Below are positions 11,751 to 30,555 of a DNA stretch of 64,000 bases, piece after piece. Made by a program: the position numbers and the translations under genes. Each line of letters opens with the position of its first letter. Position 1 is the stretch's first letter. The notes below the pieces were generated by a model. The model worked only from the letters and a program-made list of their open reading frames with translations. It made no database searches and had not been told where the DNA came from. Source of the DNA: a virus (lineage: Duplodnaviria; Caudoviricetes); the IMG/VR virus record IMGVR_UViG_3300017716_001697, positions 192,001 through 256,000 of that record; one strand, 5' to 3'.

Positions 11751-12239
11751 ATGAATATACTTCTTGCCCTTGTCATTGCATTATCGTGTACCACAACATT
11801 TGCTGCCGATAACTGGAAGCTTACTGCGGTATTGGGTAACGATAAACCCGTAGGATATGTGTATCACACATCGTCTATGGGTACGCAGACAAATCCAGTA
11901 AACAAGTCATACAGTGGCCTAAGATTAATATGTTCGTTAAAGGGTGGTGAACCAGTTGTTGCATTATATTGGAACAACGGAATGAACATCCGTGAAGAAA
12001 TTCTGGTCACTGTTATAGCAGATAATAAGGCAACAGTACATCCTACACTCTGGGGCTCAGAGGGGGATCTATTGTTTAGAAATGTTGCTGAATCAAAGGA
12101 ACTGTTAGCATTGATTAAAACCAGTAAGGTTGTAAAATTTCAATGGATGGCAGGTGCTGCATCCCAGTACACAACTGCATTCAATGTGGCAGGTATAAAT
12201 CTTAGTGATTTTAACGCAAAATGTAAGACAGAGTTATAA
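11751..12239 (+). CDS. Exported protein
   Basis: Signal peptide ending TFA-A. Confidence 0.7.
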   Translation: MNILLALVIALSCTTTFAADNWKLTAVLGNDKPVGYVYHTSSMGTQTNPVNKSYSGLRLICSLKGGEPVVALYWNNGMNIREEILVTVIADNKATVHPTLWGSEGDLLFRNVAESKELLALIKTSKVVKFQWMAGAASQYTTAFNVAGINLSDFNAKCKTEL

Positions 12240-20574: not shown

Positions 20575-20745
20575 ATGATTTGTCCGAAATGTGATACACT
20601 GATGGGTGCAATGGGGTATGGTGATGAACGGTGTCCTGCTTGTGGACACACATCATATTCTGAATCTGATGAAGAATTTAATCTTCGCATATACGGTACA
20701 ACATTCCGTGAAGGCGAAGATATTGACACTGAACAAAGAGAATAA
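20575..20745 (+). CDS. Small Zn-ribbon protein (56 aa, absent from ORF track)
   Basis: MICPKC...RCPACG; stop 1 nt before the rtcB ATG. Confidence 0.7.
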   Translation: MICPKCDTLMGAMGYGDERCPACGHTSYSESDEEFNLRIYGTTFREGEDIDTEQRE

Positions 20746-20746
20746 T

Positions 20747-21940
20747 ATGGAAATCGAAAATGTAAAAATGTGGGTAGGTGATATGGAAGTAGAGCAAGCA
20801 GCTCTATCCCAAATCCTAAACATTTCCCAACTACCTATCCTTGCTGGACACATGGCTATCATGCCAGACGTACACATGGGTAAAGGTGCCACTGTGGGTT
20901 CTGTTATCCCTACACGTTCTGCAATTATTCCTGCGGCTGTGGGTGTGGATATCGGCTGTGGTATGATTGCAGCAATGACCAACCTTACTGCCGATGATCT
21001 TCCTGACTCATTGTTTTCGTTGCGTAATGCAATTGAAAAGGTAGTACCTGTAGGATTCAACGAACACGCAAAGGGCATCCCTTCTGTATCGGGACCTTAC
21101 GCAGATATCCTGCGCAAGAATTTGCACAAGACAATGGATCAATGGGATCACTTGGCAATGAAGCAGCACCTTGGTCGTGCTGACGAAAAGCGCATTGCTC
21201 GCCAAATCGGTACGCTAGGTGGTGGTAACCACTTTATCGAAATCTGTCTCGATACATCTAACCGTGTGTGGATTATGTTACACAGTGGTTCACGCGGTAT
21301 CGGCAATCAAATCGGCACTGTTGCAATCGAAATGGCTAAAGAACAGGCTGCTAAACGTGCATGGGGTCTCCCTGATGCTGATCTTGCATGGCTGGACGAA
21401 GGCACAACCGAATTCGATGCATACATTGAGGCAATGCATTGGGCACAGGACTATGCAAAATTCAACCGCGATACAATGCTGAATTTGGTTATTTCTGCAA
21501 TGAAGGTAAAGTTTCCTACAATGAAGATTGTTGGCGAAGTTGTAAACTGCCACCATAATTTTACAAGCGTGGAAGAGCACTTCAATGAAAAGATCTGGGT
21601 GACACGTAAGGGTGCAGTTTCTGCGCAGTATGGGCAAATGGGTATTATTCCCGGCTCAATGGGTGCAAAGTCATTCATTGTTCGCGGTAAAGGTAATCCT
21701 GATTCCTACTGCTCGTGTTCGCATGGTGCTGGTCGTAAGATGAGCCGCAACCAAGCTAAGAAGTTGTTCACATCACTTGATCTAGAACAACAAACAGCCG
21801 GTGTTGAGTGCCGTAAGGATGCAGACGTAGTTGATGAAATTCCGGGTGCATATAAGGATATTGATCAGGTAATGGCAGCGCAGGCTGATTTGGTTGATAT
21901 TGTACACACGTTGAAGCAAGTTCTTTGTATTAAGGGGTAA
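20747..21940 (+). CDS. rtcB: RtcB RNA ligase (joins 3'-P or 2',3'-cyclic-P to 5'-OH)
   Basis: PDVHMGKG, VGVDIGCG, GTLGGGNHFIE, HSGSRG, HHNF, RKGA, PGSMG, SHGAGR, YKDI motifs. Confidence 0.97.
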   Translation: MEIENVKMWVGDMEVEQAALSQILNISQLPILAGHMAIMPDVHMGKGATVGSVIPTRSAIIPAAVGVDIGCGMIAAMTNLTADDLPDSLFSLRNAIEKVVPVGFNEHAKGIPSVSGPYADILRKNLHKTMDQWDHLAMKQHLGRADEKRIARQIGTLGGGNHFIEICLDTSNRVWIMLHSGSRGIGNQIGTVAIEMAKEQAAKRAWGLPDADLAWLDEGTTEFDAYIEAMHWAQDYAKFNRDTMLNLVISAMKVKFPTMKIVGEVVNCHHNFTSVEEHFNEKIWVTRKGAVSAQYGQMGIIPGSMGAKSFIVRGKGNPDSYCSCSHGAGRKMSRNQAKKLFTSLDLEQQTAGVECRKDADVVDEIPGAYKDIDQVMAAQADLVDIVHTLKQVLCIKG

Positions 21941-21942
21941 TC

Positions 21943-22995
21943 ATGGGATCATGGAACGGAACATGTGCAGTATCTAACCTGCACGTACGAAGCGGGCAAG
22001 AGGTAGCAGTATTCATGCTGCTCGAAAACAAAAGATCAAAATCCTTCTGTTATGGTAATGCATTGTACGATGTATGCCCGTTACCATTCTATGGCAAGTA
22101 TAATGATTACGGTGCAGTAGAAGACTGCCAAGGCCCGGTGTTGCCCATTGTGGTTGACGAAATCAAGCGCCAGCTGTACGAATTTGGCCAAGGCCCGAAC
22201 AGTAGCCACGACATGGTAGTACGCAGGGCCGATTTTGACATTGATCTGTTATTTGAAGCCGACCACGAAGATCGTCTCGGTATTCAATATACACCCTTCT
22301 TCGACGAAGATGATTATGATCTTCGCGAATTGCGTAAAGACGGTGAAAAAGATCAACTTACACCAGATCAGCAATTCGAGCTTGACAGACTAGCCAACAA
22401 ACTCAAACAGGTAGATACATTTAGACGTGTTACACACGTAATTATTCATGGTGATATTTTCCGTGATATCATGAATAAATATTACATCGATGAATATGTT
22501 GGTGACAGCAAAGGTACAACAGGTTATGGAAATAACTATAACCGTGTATTCTTTAAGGATATTCTTGCATCTATTCCTGCATACATCGATGCCTGCAAGT
22601 CTGAAGCGGCAAGAATTAATGCTATGACTGACCCGCATGAACAATGGGCAGAACGAAACATTCCTAAGGATGAATGGAAGAATCCTAATCTTGCAGCAAG
22701 ATGGCTAAACAGCTTCAGTAATAGCAGCGAAGGATTCGGGCTTCTTCGTGTCGACGAATACATTCGCGAATATAAGAATGACGGCCGGTGGGACGAGCTG
22801 ACAGACTTTGTTACAGAAGCGTTAAAGGGTGCATGGGTAAATAGATATATGTCATCCATCCGTAAGCTGTGGTCGAAGCAGACAGGTGCCGGCTCTCAGA
22901 ATGATGAACATGATGGATACAATATCCTGATCCAATCAATGACAGACGTATTGGCGGCCGAGAAGAAGGCGTGGGATGACGAGAACGGGGAGTAG
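21943..22995 (+). CDS. Hypothetical phage protein
   Basis: 350 aa, MGSWNGTCAVSNL..., coupled to rtcB. Confidence 0.8.
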   Translation: MGSWNGTCAVSNLHVRSGQEVAVFMLLENKRSKSFCYGNALYDVCPLPFYGKYNDYGAVEDCQGPVLPIVVDEIKRQLYEFGQGPNSSHDMVVRRADFDIDLLFEADHEDRLGIQYTPFFDEDDYDLRELRKDGEKDQLTPDQQFELDRLANKLKQVDTFRRVTHVIIHGDIFRDIMNKYYIDEYVGDSKGTTGYGNNYNRVFFKDILASIPAYIDACKSEAARINAMTDPHEQWAERNIPKDEWKNPNLAARWLNSFSNSSEGFGLLRVDEYIREYKNDGRWDELTDFVTEALKGAWVNRYMSSIRKLWSKQTGAGSQNDEHDGYNILIQSMTDVLAAEKKAWDDENGE

Positions 22996-25663: not shown

Positions 25664-26290
25664 ATGATATGCGAATACGGATGTAATGGGGAGGCCAATC
25701 ATCAATTACTAAACGGTAAATGGTGTTGCAGTAAACGGCCCGCTGGTTGCAAGGTGCTAAAGGCAGTTAACTCGGCAGGTCTGAAGAAAGCGCATAGTGA
25801 GGGTAGGGGCGGATATATTTACAAAGATCTATCTGACGAAACCAAAGCCCGAATGAATTGGGCTAAGGGTAAGACTATTACACCCGATAGCGAAATATTT
25901 ACAGAAAATAGCACATACTCTAACGAGATGGTTAAACATAGAATTGTTAAAGGTGATCTATTAGAATACAAATGCTCTAATCCGAAATGTGGAATAACCG
26001 AATGGTGCGACGAATCTATTGTGTTAGATTTGGATCATATAAATGGTAACAACACAGATAACAGATTATCTAATTTACGATACTTATGCCCAAATTGCCA
26101 TTCTCAGACAGACACATACAAGGGCAGAAATAAGAATACAGGTAAGTTGAAAGTAACCGACACTGAATTGTTGGCAGCATATAAGGAATGCAATAATATT
26201 AGGCAAGCATTAATCAGCGTAGGAATTGCTGCAAAGGGTGGCAATTATGAAAGATTAAAAAAATTAATTAGCAAAACGCTTGCCCTATAG
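25664..26290 (+). CDS. Free-standing HNH homing endonuclease
   Basis: LDLDHINGNNTDNRLSNLRYLCPNCHSQT; N-terminal CEYGC..WCC Zn motif; C-terminal HTH-like tail; late box GATAAATA and RBS AGGAG. Confidence 0.9.
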   Translation: MICEYGCNGEANHQLLNGKWCCSKRPAGCKVLKAVNSAGLKKAHSEGRGGYIYKDLSDETKARMNWAKGKTITPDSEIFTENSTYSNEMVKHRIVKGDLLEYKCSNPKCGITEWCDESIVLDLDHINGNNTDNRLSNLRYLCPNCHSQTDTYKGRNKNTGKLKVTDTELLAAYKECNNIRQALISVGIAAKGGNYERLKKLISKTLAL

Positions 26291-26358: not shown

Positions 26359-26648
26359 GCGGGTATGGAGAAATTGGTAAACTCACCAGACTTAGAGAAA
26401 TAAAATTTGAGTGCCCGGTCGGAAACGATCGGAGTAGAACCTGTCAAATTCGGCGAACACTTTAACATGTCAACGCCGAGCGAAGCCCGAAAGGGAACGT
26501 GTAGAGACTTGACGGCAGGTACCTAACGCAGAAATGCTACGGTAAAGACAAAGTCCAGACTATCAAACCGAGAGGGTAGCGAAAGCTATAGTAGTAAGAA
26601 AATCTGGCGCCGCAAGGCTTGACGGTTCAAGTCCGTCTACCCGCACCA
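26359..26648 (+). tRNA. trnL: tRNA-Leu(UAA) interrupted by a group I intron
   Basis: Exons 26359..26393 and 26599..26648 join into GCGGGTA/TACCCGC acceptor, CCAGA-CTTAAAA-TCTGG anticodon arm, long variable arm and ACCA. Confidence 0.93.
26394..26598 (+). mobile_element. Group I intron (IC3-like, 205 nt, no ORF)
   Basis: P1 ACTT/GAGT with U-G at the splice site; P AAATTCGGCGAA, Q AACGCCGAGCGAAG, R GTGTAGAGACT, S AAGACAAAGTCC; terminal G. Confidence 0.92.
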
Positions 26649-26746
26649 TATTAGGATACATTGTGCAGACGCGGTAGCTAGCCCAAAAGGGACTTTACTA
26701 GCGACAATGGTGAATGCAGGTACAACAGTGTATCCCAATATGGTGC
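26643..26746 (+). ncRNA. Array element E1 (long closing stem, branched interior)
   Basis: GCACCATATT-A-GGATACATTGT / ACAGTGTATCC-C-AATATGGTGC. Confidence 0.75.
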
Positions 26747-26927
26747 CATATTAAAACGCATAAATGCATTAGTTGCATTGGTAATCTGAATGACGTGGAT
26801 AGCTGCATCTTACCCACTGTCAAACAGAGGACATTGCAGGTGATAGCAAATGTAATGGTTTACAGCTAGGCGATTAGAGTCTGGTAGGTGGGTTCAACTC
26901 CTGCTAATGCGGTTTAACATGGCACCA
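26744..26927 (+). ncRNA. Array element E2 (long stem enclosing a tRNA-like domain, ends in CCA)
   Basis: TGCCATATTAAAACGCAT / ATGCGGTTTAACATGGCA; internal T-arm GTGGG-TTCAACT-CCTGC. Confidence 0.7.
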
Positions 26928-27017
26928 TATCGAAGTACATTAACTGAGTACAAGGCTCAGCGTGCGAATTTTAGTAACTAAGCCTCAAGAGGAAGCTATA
27001 GTGTACTTCGATATGGT
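26924..27017 (+). ncRNA. Array element E3
   Basis: Perfect 16-bp stem ACCATATCGAAGTACA/TGTACTTCGATATGGT with three small internal hairpins. Confidence 0.8.
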
Positions 27018-27065
27018 ATAATGTAGACGTATATTGTAACATACACGGAAGGTAATTGGTCCGTG

Positions 27066-27189
27066 AAACTCGACTGTGGTGTAATGGTAGCACTCAAAAG
27101 TTCCTGGTTCGAATCCAGGCCCGCAATAACCAAAGGGGGTTCGGCACAACGAGTAGGAGAGATGGTTCGATTCCGTCCGAATAGAGTTT
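27066..27189 (+). ncRNA. Element E4: D-arm plus two T-arms, no anticodon arm
   Basis: GTGT-AATGGTA-GCAC; CCTGG-TTCGAAT-CCAGG; GATGG-TTCGATT-CCGTC; closed by AAACTC/GAGTTT. Confidence 0.6.
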
Positions 27190-27190
27190 G

Positions 27191-27269
27191 CATATTAGAG
27201 GGCATTATGCTTCTATTTAAAAAGGGAGCCTGTGCTGGCACATTGGCACATCTAATGTCCTCTAATATG
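27191..27269 (+). ncRNA. Array element E5
   Basis: 17-bp stem CATATTAGAGGGCATTA/TAATGTCCTCTAATATG. Confidence 0.8.
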
Positions 27270-27423
27270 ATGCAGGTAGGCAAATGTGGTAAAGCCGCCG
27301 GTTCGGTCCGGTGAGAGATATGTTGAAGTCTTACATGATGACGGGTAGCTGGGTCGACACAGTCCGTACAGTGGCAGGAGCGATATATTTCGTTTATGGG
27401 TTCGATTCCCATCTTGTATCCCA
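27269..27423 (+). ncRNA. tRNA-His-like RNA with 84-nt variable region and 6-nt anticodon loop
   Basis: G-1:C73 pair, acceptor ATGCAGG/CTTGTAT, D-arm GGC/GCC, T-arm ATGGG-TTCGATT-CCCAT, CCA end. Confidence 0.7.
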
Positions 27424-27428
27424 GAATA

Positions 27429-27628
27429 GCCAGGGTAGCTCAGTCAGGCACGAAACTTAAAGGGAAGATGTTGCAACATTCAACGGAGAGAAGTAATGAC
27501 TTAGGAAGGTTAAGTAGTAAGCATCTTATGATACGCGGTGTAAGGTGTGTAGGTGATAGCCAACTATTAAGTAGAGCAACCAGTATCTAACTGGAAGGTC
27601 GTTGGTTCAATTCCATCCGCTGGCACCA
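27429..27628 (+). ncRNA. tRNA-like RNA with a ~120-nt structured D-loop insertion
   Basis: Acceptor GCCAGGG/CGCTGGC, D-stem GCTC/GAGC enclosing 132 nt, anticodon arm CCAG-TATCTAA-CTGG, T-loop TTCAATT, ACCA. Confidence 0.75.
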
Positions 27629-27634
27629 AATTAT

Positions 27635-27749
27635 GCGATGATAGCTTCAGGTTGGTAGAGCGCGTCATTGAATGCCCTATTTATTCTACGTTATGGTATA
27701 TAGGCGAGTGGTCAGGACGAGGTCGCAGGTTCAACGCCTGCTCATTGTA
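27635..27749 (+). ncRNA. tRNA-Phe(GAA)-like RNA with ~40 extra nt in the anticodon loop
   Basis: Acceptor GCGATGA/TCATTGT, D-arm GCTT/GAGC, CGTCA-TT-GAA...GGACG, T-arm GCAGG-TTCAACG-CCTGC. Confidence 0.72.
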
Positions 27750-27753
27750 TAAG

Positions 27754-27861
27754 CCATATGAGAATACACTGTGGAGAGCACTGCGTATGACTGGGAAGGT
27801 TTGAACCCGACTCACATCGTCACTCGGTATCCTGCGGCCGCAACAGTGTATTCCCATATGG
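27754..27861 (+). ncRNA. Array element E7 (paralog of E1)
   Basis: CCATATG-A-GAATACACTGT / ACAGTGTATTC-C-CATATGG; compensatory changes relative to E1. Confidence 0.8.
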
Positions 27862-28185
27862 TACGAAGGGTAGAAGATGATATCAAAGGCTATTTCCTTT
27901 TTTGATAGACGAAACGCTGTGGCCACGGTGTTAGACTACTTATTGGTTAACCATTGTACCGCCAGATTCCGAAGCCTGTAATCAGGCCTGCCAAACAGTA
28001 AATTGGAGTGTGGGAGGACGCACTTAAAACCATCTCCCGCAGGGTCACCATGTGTTATGAGCGGTGATAGTTTAGCGAACCGGAGTCCTAAAAACCGGAA
28101 GGGTAAAGCAAACTTACCTACAAGTAGCGAAAGGTCTGCTATAGCAGTCAAGCCATCCTAGTCTGGAAAACTAGGGTGCATTTAT
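27862..28185 (+). ncRNA. Unassigned multi-hairpin RNA ending in a terminator-like stem
   Basis: Stems TATCAAA/TTTGATA, GCCTG/CAGGC, GAGTGTG/CGCACTT, TCACC/GGTGA, GGGTAA/TTACCT, CATCCTAG/CTAGGGTG. Confidence 0.45.
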
Positions 28186-28348
28186 TTTAGAAAGATATCC
28201 ATATGTACACTTATGCATGGACCATATTTGGTTATTACGGTGGACCTACTATGACAACAAATTATCAACAACACTGTTCGTGGTACACTGTTGACGATTT
28301 TGGTGATCTCGTACCTGCCACATACAAAATGGATTATTTGGAGACAAC

Positions 28349-28558
28349 ATGACACAGAAAATTTACGGATTAATTGCTGACGGCGGTGACGGAAGTTCTA
28401 GCATGCGTTGGTTTCGATCTTTTGATAAGGTTAACGAATTGCTCGACGAAGAGAATGGGCACGAGGAATATTGGGCGAACGAAGGCGGACCTGCCGAAAG
28501 ACTTACCTTCCCCGATGATCTTAATCTTGAGGAGTGCGGATTCTACTTTAGTGACTGA
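28349..28558 (+). CDS. Acidic hypothetical protein
   Basis: RBS GGAG; DGGDGSSS...WF. Confidence 0.7.
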   Translation: MTQKIYGLIADGGDGSSSMRWFRSFDKVNELLDEENGHEEYWANEGGPAERLTFPDDLNLEECGFYFSD

Positions 28559-28563
28559 AACGT

Positions 28564-28797
28564 ATGACGTACAAATACGTGATTACTGTAGACTATCCTG
28601 AGCGAAGGCATATCTGGGATTGGTGTGTAGAACACATAGGTAAGTCAGCGCATGATACATTTTACTATGATCCGGGACAAGGGCAGTGGCCCAATATTCC
28701 GAAATTCATAATTTATAATCCAGAACATGCTACATTGTTTAAATTAGTATGGGGTGAATATATAAAGGGCAACGTGAAGGCCCCGTGCAGTATATAG
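28564..28797 (+). CDS. Family A small protein
   Basis: IWDWCVEHIG...FIIYNPEHATLFKLVWG. Confidence 0.8.
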   Translation: MTYKYVITVDYPERRHIWDWCVEHIGKSAHDTFYYDPGQGQWPNIPKFIIYNPEHATLFKLVWGEYIKGNVKAPCSI

Positions 28798-28874
28798 CGG
28801 CATACCCGTATCTACTGCATAAAGGTATAGACTAGTAATACCACGGCTCTTGGTTGTTATCGGACTAAACAACC

Positions 28875-29011
28875 ACCATATCAAATCATATTGCCCTACC
28901 CATTGGGTAGCAGACAGTGGTTGGAAGGATCTGCTCGTTACTCGCCGCGTTGGATGCACTCGGGTTGCACCGATGCCAACAGACAGTGATTGCAGTATGA
29001 TTTGATATGGT
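28875..29011 (+). ncRNA. Array element E8
   Basis: 20-bp stem ACCATATCAAATCATATTGC/GCAGTATGATTTGATATGGT with a branched interior. Confidence 0.8.
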
Positions 29012-29119
29012 CATTATATAGAAACAGAATTCTATGTTACAGGCGTGGGGGGTACGAACCACATTAAATAAATAAGTAACTGAAAATCCTGTGCCCCTCG
29101 AGTATGTTTCTATATGGTG
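29012..29119 (+). ncRNA. Array element E9
   Basis: 15-bp stem CATTATATAGAAACA/TGTTTCTATATGGTG abutting E8. Confidence 0.7.
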
Positions 29120-29242
29120 ATGTAGTGTCCTCGAAAGGGACTGTGGCGGGGCGGAACGGATCGTTATACGGTGATGCCCATGAGAATTCAATCCACACGG
29201 AGCAAGAGTAAGTGAACGTGAGTAGCCGACTACCAATCACCA
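29115..29242 (+). ncRNA. Array element E10
   Basis: TGGTGAT-GTAGT / ACTAC-CA-ATCACCA; overlaps the 3' end of E9. Confidence 0.55.
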
Positions 29243-29275
29243 TAACCATTAGACAGCGGCGGCGCCGGGTGTTAT

Positions 29276-29333
29276 AATATGCTGAGCCTAGTACAAAGGG
29301 TCGACACGCAAGATACATAATTCGCAGCATATT
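29276..29333 (+). ncRNA. Array element E11
   Basis: AATATGCTG/CAGCATATT stem abutting E12. Confidence 0.5.
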
Positions 29334-29463
29334 TCTTATTGAAGTACATTTTTGTCCACATTTCTCCAGGGAGCGACTGTGGGTGCGTTGTCACTAAACT
29401 ATACGACGCCAACCATCCCTAGACTGTACGTAAGACACACAGTTGGAATGTGCTTCAATAAGA
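29334..29463 (+). ncRNA. Array element E12 (paralog of E3)
   Basis: 17-bp stem TCTTATTGAAGTACATT/AATGTGCTTCAATAAGA. Confidence 0.78.
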
Positions 29464-29480
29464 TTTAACACATAAATTAT

Positions 29481-29750
29481 ATGTCACACTCAATGCAACT
29501 TAACATACCAGACCGAGTTTTCGGTAATTGTCATTACCTTGTGGCTCCTCGCATCAGAGAATGGATGGATGAATATAAGTTGCATATCTCGTACTGTGGA
29601 TCTAATTTATCGGGTACAGGATACAACAAGAACGGGGAATCTAATAAAGAATGGTCCTACATGGTGTACAATATCAAAGAAGAAGATGCATCCATGTTTA
29701 AAATCCGATTCCCGGATTGCAAAGTGTATCTTAGTGAACAGGTTGCATAA
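29481..29750 (+). CDS. Family A small protein
   Basis: YNIKEEDASMFKIRFP. Confidence 0.75.
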   Translation: MSHSMQLNIPDRVFGNCHYLVAPRIREWMDEYKLHISYCGSNLSGTGYNKNGESNKEWSYMVYNIKEEDASMFKIRFPDCKVYLSEQVA

Positions 29751-29965
29751 TGGTAACATTTGAGCGTGGTACACACTATTGGCGTCAGATACGTAGGGAA
29801 TTCATTATGACACCAATGAATGCAAGAGCATACAAAGATGGATATGCAACGTATGGAGACTGGCTATTTAAACTAGGTGCAATGGAAGATAAGGCAACTA
29901 ATATAATTTTCGTTAACGACGAAGATGCCACATTAATCAAGCTACAGCATGGTTGGTGTGGATAA
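29750..29965 (+). CDS. Family A small protein
   Basis: IIFVNDEDATLIKLQHG. Confidence 0.75.
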   Translation: MVTFERGTHYWRQIRREFIMTPMNARAYKDGYATYGDWLFKLGAMEDKATNIIFVNDEDATLIKLQHGWCG

Positions 29966-30312: not shown

Positions 30313-30555
30313 ATGACTGAAGACGATACATTCCGTTTACTAAAGCGAACACCATATAGTGAAGTCCGTAGACTTATATACAAAGCAGAATATAATGTGT
30401 TGATGGGCATTGGCCGCACGTCTGTTACAAAGTCATCTCATATCTTAGCAGCCAATGGTTGGACAAGGGACGAGTACGACAATACAACACGGGACGAAAA
30501 CCCGTTGTTACATGCTTATCTCGATTCCATTAAAGATCTCAAACGGCTTGACTAA
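30313..30555 (+). CDS. Family B small protein
   Basis: MTEDDTFRLL...GWTRDEY. Confidence 0.8.
   Translation: MTEDDTFRLLKRTPYSEVRRLIYKAEYNVLMGIGRTSVTKSSHILAANGWTRDEYDNTTRDENPLLHAYLDSIKDLKRLD

Follow-up and report, generated by a model that had tools for sequence, protein, structure and literature searches.

Two tandem arrays of putative small structured RNAs with a common 18-bp closing helix near the tRNA cluster of an uncultured jumbo phage

The stretch of DNA analysed here (the window; 64,000 nucleotides) comprises bases 192001-256000 of a 364,576 bp single-contig virus record with direct terminal repeats. The source assembly of this jumbo-phage record is a freshwater metagenome. The phage genes lie nearly all on the + strand, strong sigma70-like promoters are present across the genome, and an RtcB ligase, a DNA ligase and HNH endonucleases are encoded. 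Within the window, the RtcB gene (Pfam E 1e-127) is situated 7 kb upstream of the RNA units described below. A tRNA-Arg gene is found just upstream of it, and it is followed by a 350-aa ORF (both within 20606-22995), for which there is no Pfam match and no informative Atlas neighbour, the Atlas model being of low confidence. An HNH endonuclease gene (25664-26290) lies directly upstream of a tRNA-Leu gene and the RNA array, an arrangement that recalls segB in the T4 tRNA cluster; at the equivalent position of a related contig (L004:7260-7690) there is an ORF that is HNH-like by eye.

There is no close relative of this phage among 50,697 deposited phage genomes, in which the top ligase match reaches 44%; the same records contain no match for the region (blastn) and none for either of the flanking ORFs (tblastn). 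An uncultured clade of relatives is present in IMG/VR and public assemblies, with ligase identities of 54-81%, and contigs from these sources are designated here by L numbers. The ligase of L016, the contig to which we refer most often, is 58% identical in protein sequence to that of the window phage. The following features, of which the units are predicted RNAs, are considered below:

26643-27862, + strand: first array, with units E1, E2, E3, E5 and E7 of the same family, among which lie an intron-bearing tRNA-Leu and aberrant tRNA-like genes
28154-28188, + strand: hairpin resembling a terminator, with a T-run, where the first array ends; conserved at L016:8099-8144
28851-28878, + strand: minihelix, a 7-8 bp stem (UGGUUGUU/AACAACCA) with a 9-nt loop, then A-CCA (-8.0 kcal/mol, z -2.5)
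28875-29012, + strand: E8, closed by a 20-bp helix (ACCAUAUCAAAUCAUAUUGC / GCAGUAUGAUUUGAUAUGGU), the 97-nt interior forming three hairpins
29010-29121, + strand: E9, a closing helix of 19 positions around a 74-nt interior
29113-29244, + strand: E10, a predicted structured RNA between unit arms, closed by UAUGGUGAU/AUCACCAUA plus GUAGU/GACUAC
29250-29278, + strand: sigma70-like promoter, TAGACA-17-TATAAT with a TG extension (11/12 matches, the best in the region)
29276-29333, + strand: 'E11', a 9-bp inverted repeat that overlaps the leader and the -10 element of the promoter; its status as a unit lacks support
29334-29463, + strand: E12, a branched interior inside a closing helix, within the 5' leader of ORF 29481-29750

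The first array is intimately mixed with tRNA sequences. The tRNA-Leu(UAA) gene at window 26359-26648 carries a 205-nt group I intron after U34 (Rfam 53 bits; ARAGORN with introns allowed), and an intron-less version is present in L016, L004, L008, L012, L034 and L010. Four tRNA-like genes (26765-26912, 27270-27423, 27429-27628 and 27634-27750) have intact T-arms and insertions of 40-120 nt, and are called by ARAGORN only when introns are allowed or the score is relaxed. One whole tRNA-like gene is enclosed by the helix of E2. The T-arm motif GGTTCNANNCC occurs 13 times in the window against 0.9 expected, with 7 occurrences between 26624 and 27738; T-arm-like motifs are also found outside called tRNAs, at window 35270 (GGTTCAAGACC) and 38735 (GGTTCTATGCC). 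Rfam at its gathering score identifies no hammerhead. The end of the tRNA cluster is formed by a non-coding block of about 330 nt (27870-28195; L016:7840-8144; L010:3261-3494), which terminates in the terminator-like hairpin. By blastn, 27966-28195 is 70% identical to L010 and the last ~47 nt are 88% identical to L016, and more likeness to L016:7840-8140 can be seen by eye. The block has no Rfam match and may be a larger unrecognised RNA.

The second array differs in that tRNA arms are absent, as the original prediction had stated: in 28797-29480 ARAGORN makes no call at its default score, with or without introns, and GGTTCNANNCC does not occur. An Rfam 15 cmscan of 28500-29800 with E values up to 10 also returned no match, tRNA (RF00005) and Y RNA included. 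The + strand frames of 28797-29480 contain 9-16 stop codons each and no ORF of more than 60 codons. E8 to E10 are preceded by three small ORFs, and E12 lies between the promoter at 29250 and the ORF at 29481.

This array had been predicted to consist of five units, E8 to E12, each with a stem around a cargo. E8, E9 and E12 are solid, E10 is retained by virtue of its conservation and E11 is lost; the number of units is three or four, not five. The arms of E8 (28875-28894 and 28992-29011) form the anticipated 20-bp stem with 20 pairs out of 20, one of them G-U, and for the 138 nt of the unit the predicted folding energy is -55.8 kcal/mol (z -4.17 against shuffles). Upstream of it, a hairpin ending in ACCA is present as described, with an 8-bp stem (TGGTTGTT/AACAACCA) at 28851-28875 and a z of -2.5. 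The E8 helix consensus starts with the CCA of this minihelix, and the minihelix lies within a block that is ~98% identical in the contigs of relatives. In E9, the arms (29010-29028 and 29103-29121) pair at 18 of 19 positions, with three G-U pairs (z -4.35). E9 had been placed from the base after the end of E8; it overlaps the last 2 nt of E8. On the - strand the E9 helix acquires C-A mismatches and goes undetected. A helix of the E9 type with another interior is found at L016:8333-8404.

E10 had been described as overlapping E9, and it does share the 3' arm of that unit (TATGGTGAT at 29113-29121 with ATCACCATA at 29236-29244), but it does not possess an 18-bp helix of its own. Folded alone it has a 9-bp stem and is no better than shuffles (z -1.11). 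We accept E10 as a conserved, putatively structured RNA because of its conservation and covariation in relatives: its identity is 82-84% in L003 and L016, and 5 of its 36 consensus pairs are compensatory in the three sequences compared. The 5' strand of E10 is also the end of the E9 3' arm, which makes the E9 and E10 folds mutually exclusive. We regard E10 as an inter-unit RNA that the arm ends of its neighbours close, not as a unit in its own right. Across 542 kb of related loci, a covariance model of E10 revealed no more copies, and exact patterns of E10 and E3 recovered only the L016 contig in IMG/VR, where scans with the E8 stem, the E8 cargo and the E12 cargo gave no match. L035, a high-GC bacterial contig that emerged from a metagenome scan with the E10 core, was rejected as a chance match to a 21-nt hairpin.

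The 9-bp repeat of E11 (AATATGCTG/CAGCATATT) exists, but its z of 0.02 is at chance level. E11 is a promoter and leader, not a unit. The promoter at 29250-29278 has its predicted start near 29285 and would drive E12 and the ORF at 29481; at the equivalent position L003 has a different sequence, with TTGCGT-17-TATAAT just upstream of E12 (by eye). E12 itself pairs at 21 of 22 positions, with five G-U pairs (arms 29334-29355 and 29442-29463; z -3.90). Its L003 ortholog differs at five positions, three of them paired, and all three of these changes keep the pairing. The E12 stem, which had been proposed to be a paralog of that of E3, is of the same helix type, the arms differing at 2 of the 12 variable helix positions, and this type recurs in units L004_a and L011_b. 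At stem positions 14-15, the T-A reported for E8 is present; the C-A reported for both E9 and E12 is found in E12, but in E9 only in the earlier register.

The feature that unites both arrays is the closing helix. An alignment of 17 units from the window and contigs L016, L004, L011 and L012 (5 phage contigs) shows that this helix is 18 bp long and common to both arrays and to the relatives, and the two arrays are of one family. Pairing at positions 1-18 is present in 14-17 of the 17 units, at position 19 in 8. The 5' arm follows the consensus YCAUAU-YRRA-RYR-CAYU (YCAUAU-N7-CAYU), in which AUAU, A10, C14, A15 and U17 are near-invariant; the middle of the helix varies in sequence and keeps its pairing. 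Across the 17 units G-U pairs (21) are more frequent than A-C mismatches (6), and on the - strand neither E9 nor E12 is detected; both results point to selection of the pairing in + strand RNA. Long-range stems of at least 18 pairs number 28 on the + strand genome-wide, 8 of them in the 2.9 kb at 26.6-29.5 kb, and shuffled genomes contain 5-13 in total; such helices are enriched about 50-fold at the RNA-array locus. For CATAT...ATATG stems of 13 pairs or more, the locus has five sites and the remainder of the genome a single weak one. A chance origin of the stems at the locus is excluded. At 30350 and 33218, CACCATAT falls within coding sequence. The fold z of E8, E9, E12 and the units of relatives ranges from -3.9 to -6.2.

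All 3' arms end in AUAUGG(UG) and all 5' arms start with (CA)CCAUAU; RNA between two units, as in E10 and E2, would therefore be closed automatically, in competition with the helices of the neighbours. The closing-helix arms contain no strong promoter or terminator match (at least 11/12), the only strong promoter being that in E11.

Comparison with relatives shows how the helix changes and how whole units come and go. In L016, E3 and E10 retain 87% and 84% DNA identity. Between E3 and its L016 ortholog, the helix shows 5 double compensatory changes, all of them transitions, and the interior two substitutions and one gap; covariation for any unit is drawn from 2 or 3 sequences. Helix types recur with different interiors across phages, the E9 type in L016 and the E3/E12 type in L004 and L011. 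Unit content, when compared amongst relatives as the original prediction had suggested, differs by whole blocks with joints at unit boundaries. Relatives from wastewater, compared with the window as alignment summaries rather than base by base, keep 28766-28940 (3 differences in 175 nt, ~98%), 29101-29247 and 29334-29471; they have 52 nt in place of 28940-29101 and 137 nt of other sequence in place of 29247-29334 (E11), and ~495 nt are inserted after 29471 before the next ORF. Their E8-type unit closes on a 3' arm of the E9 type, with which pairing would be restored by exactly 4 changes in the 5' arm, at helix positions 7, 8, 11 and 16; 28758-28940 contains 3-4 differences. The wastewater relatives are also devoid of E1 and E2, such that the tRNA-Leu runs straight into E3. 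In the window, E1 and E2 together are flanked by a 9-nt direct repeat, GCACCATAT, and gain or loss in relatives occurs exactly there. The small ORFs between the two arrays (28188-28349 and 28554-28758) are likewise block-swapped in the wastewater relatives, one by 12 nt and another by 218 nt. The proposal that units duplicate and spread as modules thus holds for their modular turnover at unit boundaries, but not for the stems of orthologous units: because their differences are compensatory transitions, these look like in-place RNA evolution rather than copy-and-paste.

The independence of the units from tRNAs, which had also been proposed, is borne out in part. No tRNA is found in the second array, nor near L011:12200-12630, where three tandem units lie downstream of the ligase gene (z -5.9 and -6.2). 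At ~12200-12230 of that contig a consensus TTGACA-17-TATAAT can be recognised by eye, with its predicted start on the arm of the first unit. Putatively promoter-driven second arrays downstream of the ligase operon are also present at L008:12235-12365, L005:12162-12281 and L012:11407-11561, and the equivalent position of the window contains ORFs only. Against full independence stand the minihelix of E8 and a tRNA-like end in L016. In L016, whose tRNAs are intact, the CCA of the GCACCA terminus of tRNA-Thr is where the helix of the following unit starts; the E9-type helix of this contig likewise starts on a CCA, that of a tRNA-like end which consists of a T-arm plus GCACCA and is not called by ARAGORN. 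The tRNA-Leu of the window is joined to E1 in the same manner as the tRNA-Thr of L016 to its unit, and E8 follows a 7-bp minihelix plus A-CCA.

These observations suggest that the arrays are phage small RNAs associated with a tRNA cluster, although that the units are RNAs at all, like their transcription, cleavage, enzyme and cargo function, is something that we infer from the sequence. The explanation that we favour, at about even confidence, is that small structured RNAs are encoded in tandem, each within a standard helix for processing and stabilisation, and that host RNase III probably cuts them. The + strand of the phage would carry genes for structured RNAs of ~100-140 nt, each an unrelated branched interior ('cargo') inside the standard 18-bp closing helix, the pairing of which stops at position 19. 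The helix would provide the common signal for processing and stabilisation, and a double-strand-specific endonuclease would cut within it. The phage genome contains no gene for RNase III, a dsRBD protein, Ro60, a CCA-adding enzyme, reverse transcriptase, integrase or Y1 transposase; as RNase III is not encoded by the phage, that of the host is the most likely candidate, and the enzyme would have to come from the host or be an unrecognised phage protein. Cutting would free the cargo RNA with a short protective stem and separate it from the adjoining tRNA, minihelix or mRNA, whose 3' CCA would otherwise pair with the helix. The cargos would be the working parts, possibly as decoys or regulators, and at the DNA level the conserved junction GCACCAUAU also serves as the breakpoint for gain and loss of units.

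RNase III cuts dsRNA leaving 2-nt 3' overhangs and is best known for freeing rRNAs from stems formed by distant complementary flanks (PMC5371410). E8, E9 and E12 form comparable near-uninterrupted dsRNA of about two helical turns, with 18-21 pairs and at most one mismatch. As in rRNA operons and T7-type early transcripts, a long helix is made by the flanks of the RNA to be released, in tandem within a multi-gene transcript, and the E2 helix around a tRNA-like gene resembles the processing stems around rRNAs. Unlike such stems, the 18-bp helix is strongly conserved at both ends, is common to many units and overlaps the CCA end of the upstream RNA. RNase III does not need a strong sequence consensus, and its natural E. 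coli sites have a weak one (PMC5371410). Conservation of AUAU and CAYU goes beyond these needs and therefore calls for another constraint, which might come from the CCA ends, from common descent or from a protein that recognises the sequence, for example. Other points also count against the processing reading: RNase III and dsRBD genes are absent from the phage, 18 bp is at the short end of the RNase III substrate range, a cut upstream of the tRNA CCA would damage the tRNA, and the E10 fold competes with the helices of its neighbours.

It is because the conservation of the helix ends exceeds what RNase III needs that we keep a second explanation alive, if as a distinctly minor possibility: the RNAs would act intact, the 18-bp helix being a docking site for a sequence-specific phage or host protein and the interiors recruiting or trapping factors. 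Roughly one turn of the helix, whose length is fixed, separates the two conserved blocks (positions 1-6 and 14-17), a spacing that fits recognition of one face better than generic cutting of dsRNA. Docking would also agree with the strong conservation of interiors, as seen in E3 and E10, with the tRNA-like ACCA ends at many junctions, and with the proximity of RtcB, since the interiors could be decoys for tRNA-targeting defence nucleases that act alongside this repair ligase. The architecture recalls bacterial Y RNAs (YrlA/YrlB), which function with Ro60/Rsr, have a stem bound by Ro60 and are encoded beside rtcB in some bacteria. The units, too, have a long stem of 5' and 3' ends around a variable module, are modular at ~100 nt, have tRNA-like links and lie near an RtcB gene. 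They differ from Y RNAs in that their helix consensus is their own and Rfam gives no Y RNA match, and the phage has no Ro60: the TROVE domain (PF05731) is absent from the complete genome, in which controls responded. The lack of TROVE/Ro60 and dsRBD genes weighs against docking, as does the fact that no candidate partner protein emerged and that a k-mer search found no motif common to the interiors.

We also speculate, on similarly slender expectations, that the phage possesses an RNA cassette system. A sequence-specifically recognised 18-bp address helix would let unrelated small RNAs be excised, stabilised and loaded, and the same junction would permit their gain, loss and re-pairing between phages. 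The cargos would then be decoys, sponges or regulators against host RNA-targeting defences. In a bolder variant, a nuclease that leaves cyclic-phosphate ends would cut the helices and the phage RtcB would circularise the cargos. If true, this system would be an RNA-level counterpart of integron cassette arrays. True integron attC arrays and retrons are not indicated, with no tyrosine recombinase (PF00589) and no reverse transcriptase (PF00078) in the genome and with sites that are not separated by ORF cassettes.

The arrays are clearly shaped by recombination at their junction sequence. The units might also be viewed as DNA-level modules, that is, as MITE-like inverted-repeat elements or PeSL-like recombination cassettes in which the RNA fold is incidental. 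This would account for the indels of relatives that begin and end at unit boundaries, for the GCACCATAT repeat around E1 and E2, for the different combinations of helix types and interiors among phages and for the HNH endonuclease gene just upstream of the cluster. In T4-type phages, PeSL are short conserved motifs at the breakpoints of insertions, deletions and replacements in hyperplastic regions, where they mediate comparable shuffling (PMC2839356, PMC4122927). The joints in relatives similarly fall at the conserved motif of the units, but PeSL are promoter and terminator motifs that flank ORFs, whereas the units have two paired arms around non-coding interiors, show RNA-type covariation, and carry neither promoter nor terminator motif in their arms. 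With MITEs the units share a short non-coding segment with inverted repeats of 18-20 bp that is present or absent as a block; unlike MITEs, they are not dispersed but restricted to one or two RNA-gene loci, share a single orientation and have unrelated interiors. In addition, no integrase, Y1 transposase or reverse transcriptase gene is available in the genome. The G-U asymmetry (21 to 6), together with compensatory changes that are transitions throughout, indicates selection on RNA pairing; for this reason we disfavour a purely DNA-level cassette and deem it improbable.

Even less probable, in our estimation, is that the arrays are the debris of a decaying tRNA cluster, with stems left over from tRNA trailers or old RNase sites and interiors that are junk. 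Such decay would explain the several aberrant tRNA-like genes of the first array, the minihelix plus ACCA before E8 and the wide variation of unit content among relatives. Debris would hardly be expected, however, to retain 84-87% DNA identity in E10 and E3 against 58% protein identity in the ligase, with pairs kept by compensation, nor to keep its helix consensus in at least 5 contigs and dedicated putative promoters upstream. That the region instead codes for protein on the - strand, where frames of 116 and 88 codons are open (28886-29236 and 29064-29330), can practically be discounted, given that neither ORF has a Pfam or PHROG match, that the neighbouring genes are all on the + strand and that single-base indels and block replacements in relatives disrupt both frames.

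Literature searches retrieved no description of such arrays. Of the known systems, T4 species 1 and 2 come closest by position and size, PeSL by evolutionary behaviour and Y RNAs by architecture. The two T4 RNAs (rnaC and rnaD; 119 and 139 nt), which the T4 record annotates only as 'small, stable RNA', abut each other and a tRNA-Arg in the same orientation, within a tRNA cluster beside the homing endonuclease gene segB; the window and L016 have the same layout of 100-140 nt RNA genes that abut tRNA genes on one strand. Neither T4 RNA has an 18-bp CCAUAU helix: the terminal stem of rnaC, which does have a T-arm, is short, and the fold of rnaD is at the level of shuffles (z -0.8). Both are closer to the aberrant tRNA-like genes of the first array than to E8-E12. 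Small stable RNAs thus adjoin tRNA genes in large phages, and the present locus is a richer and more tractable case, with at least 17 modules, one helix, covariation and natural gain-and-loss variants. If the helix is a common processing or loading signal, the units would constitute a new RNA family in an uncultured jumbo-phage clade. They would then also hint at a set of phage RNAs that act in the takeover of the host or against its defences, and could provide a compact, portable scaffold with which to express stable small RNAs in bacteria.

A short motif, GAC(A/T)GTG, is found at window 28913 and 28982 (both in E8), 29139 (E10) and 29375 (E12), at unpaired or junction sites of these units, and again at 27072. 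In its stricter form, GACWGTGG, it occurs 3 times in the second array, 5 times in the window and 16 times on the + strand of the whole genome, a post hoc observation.
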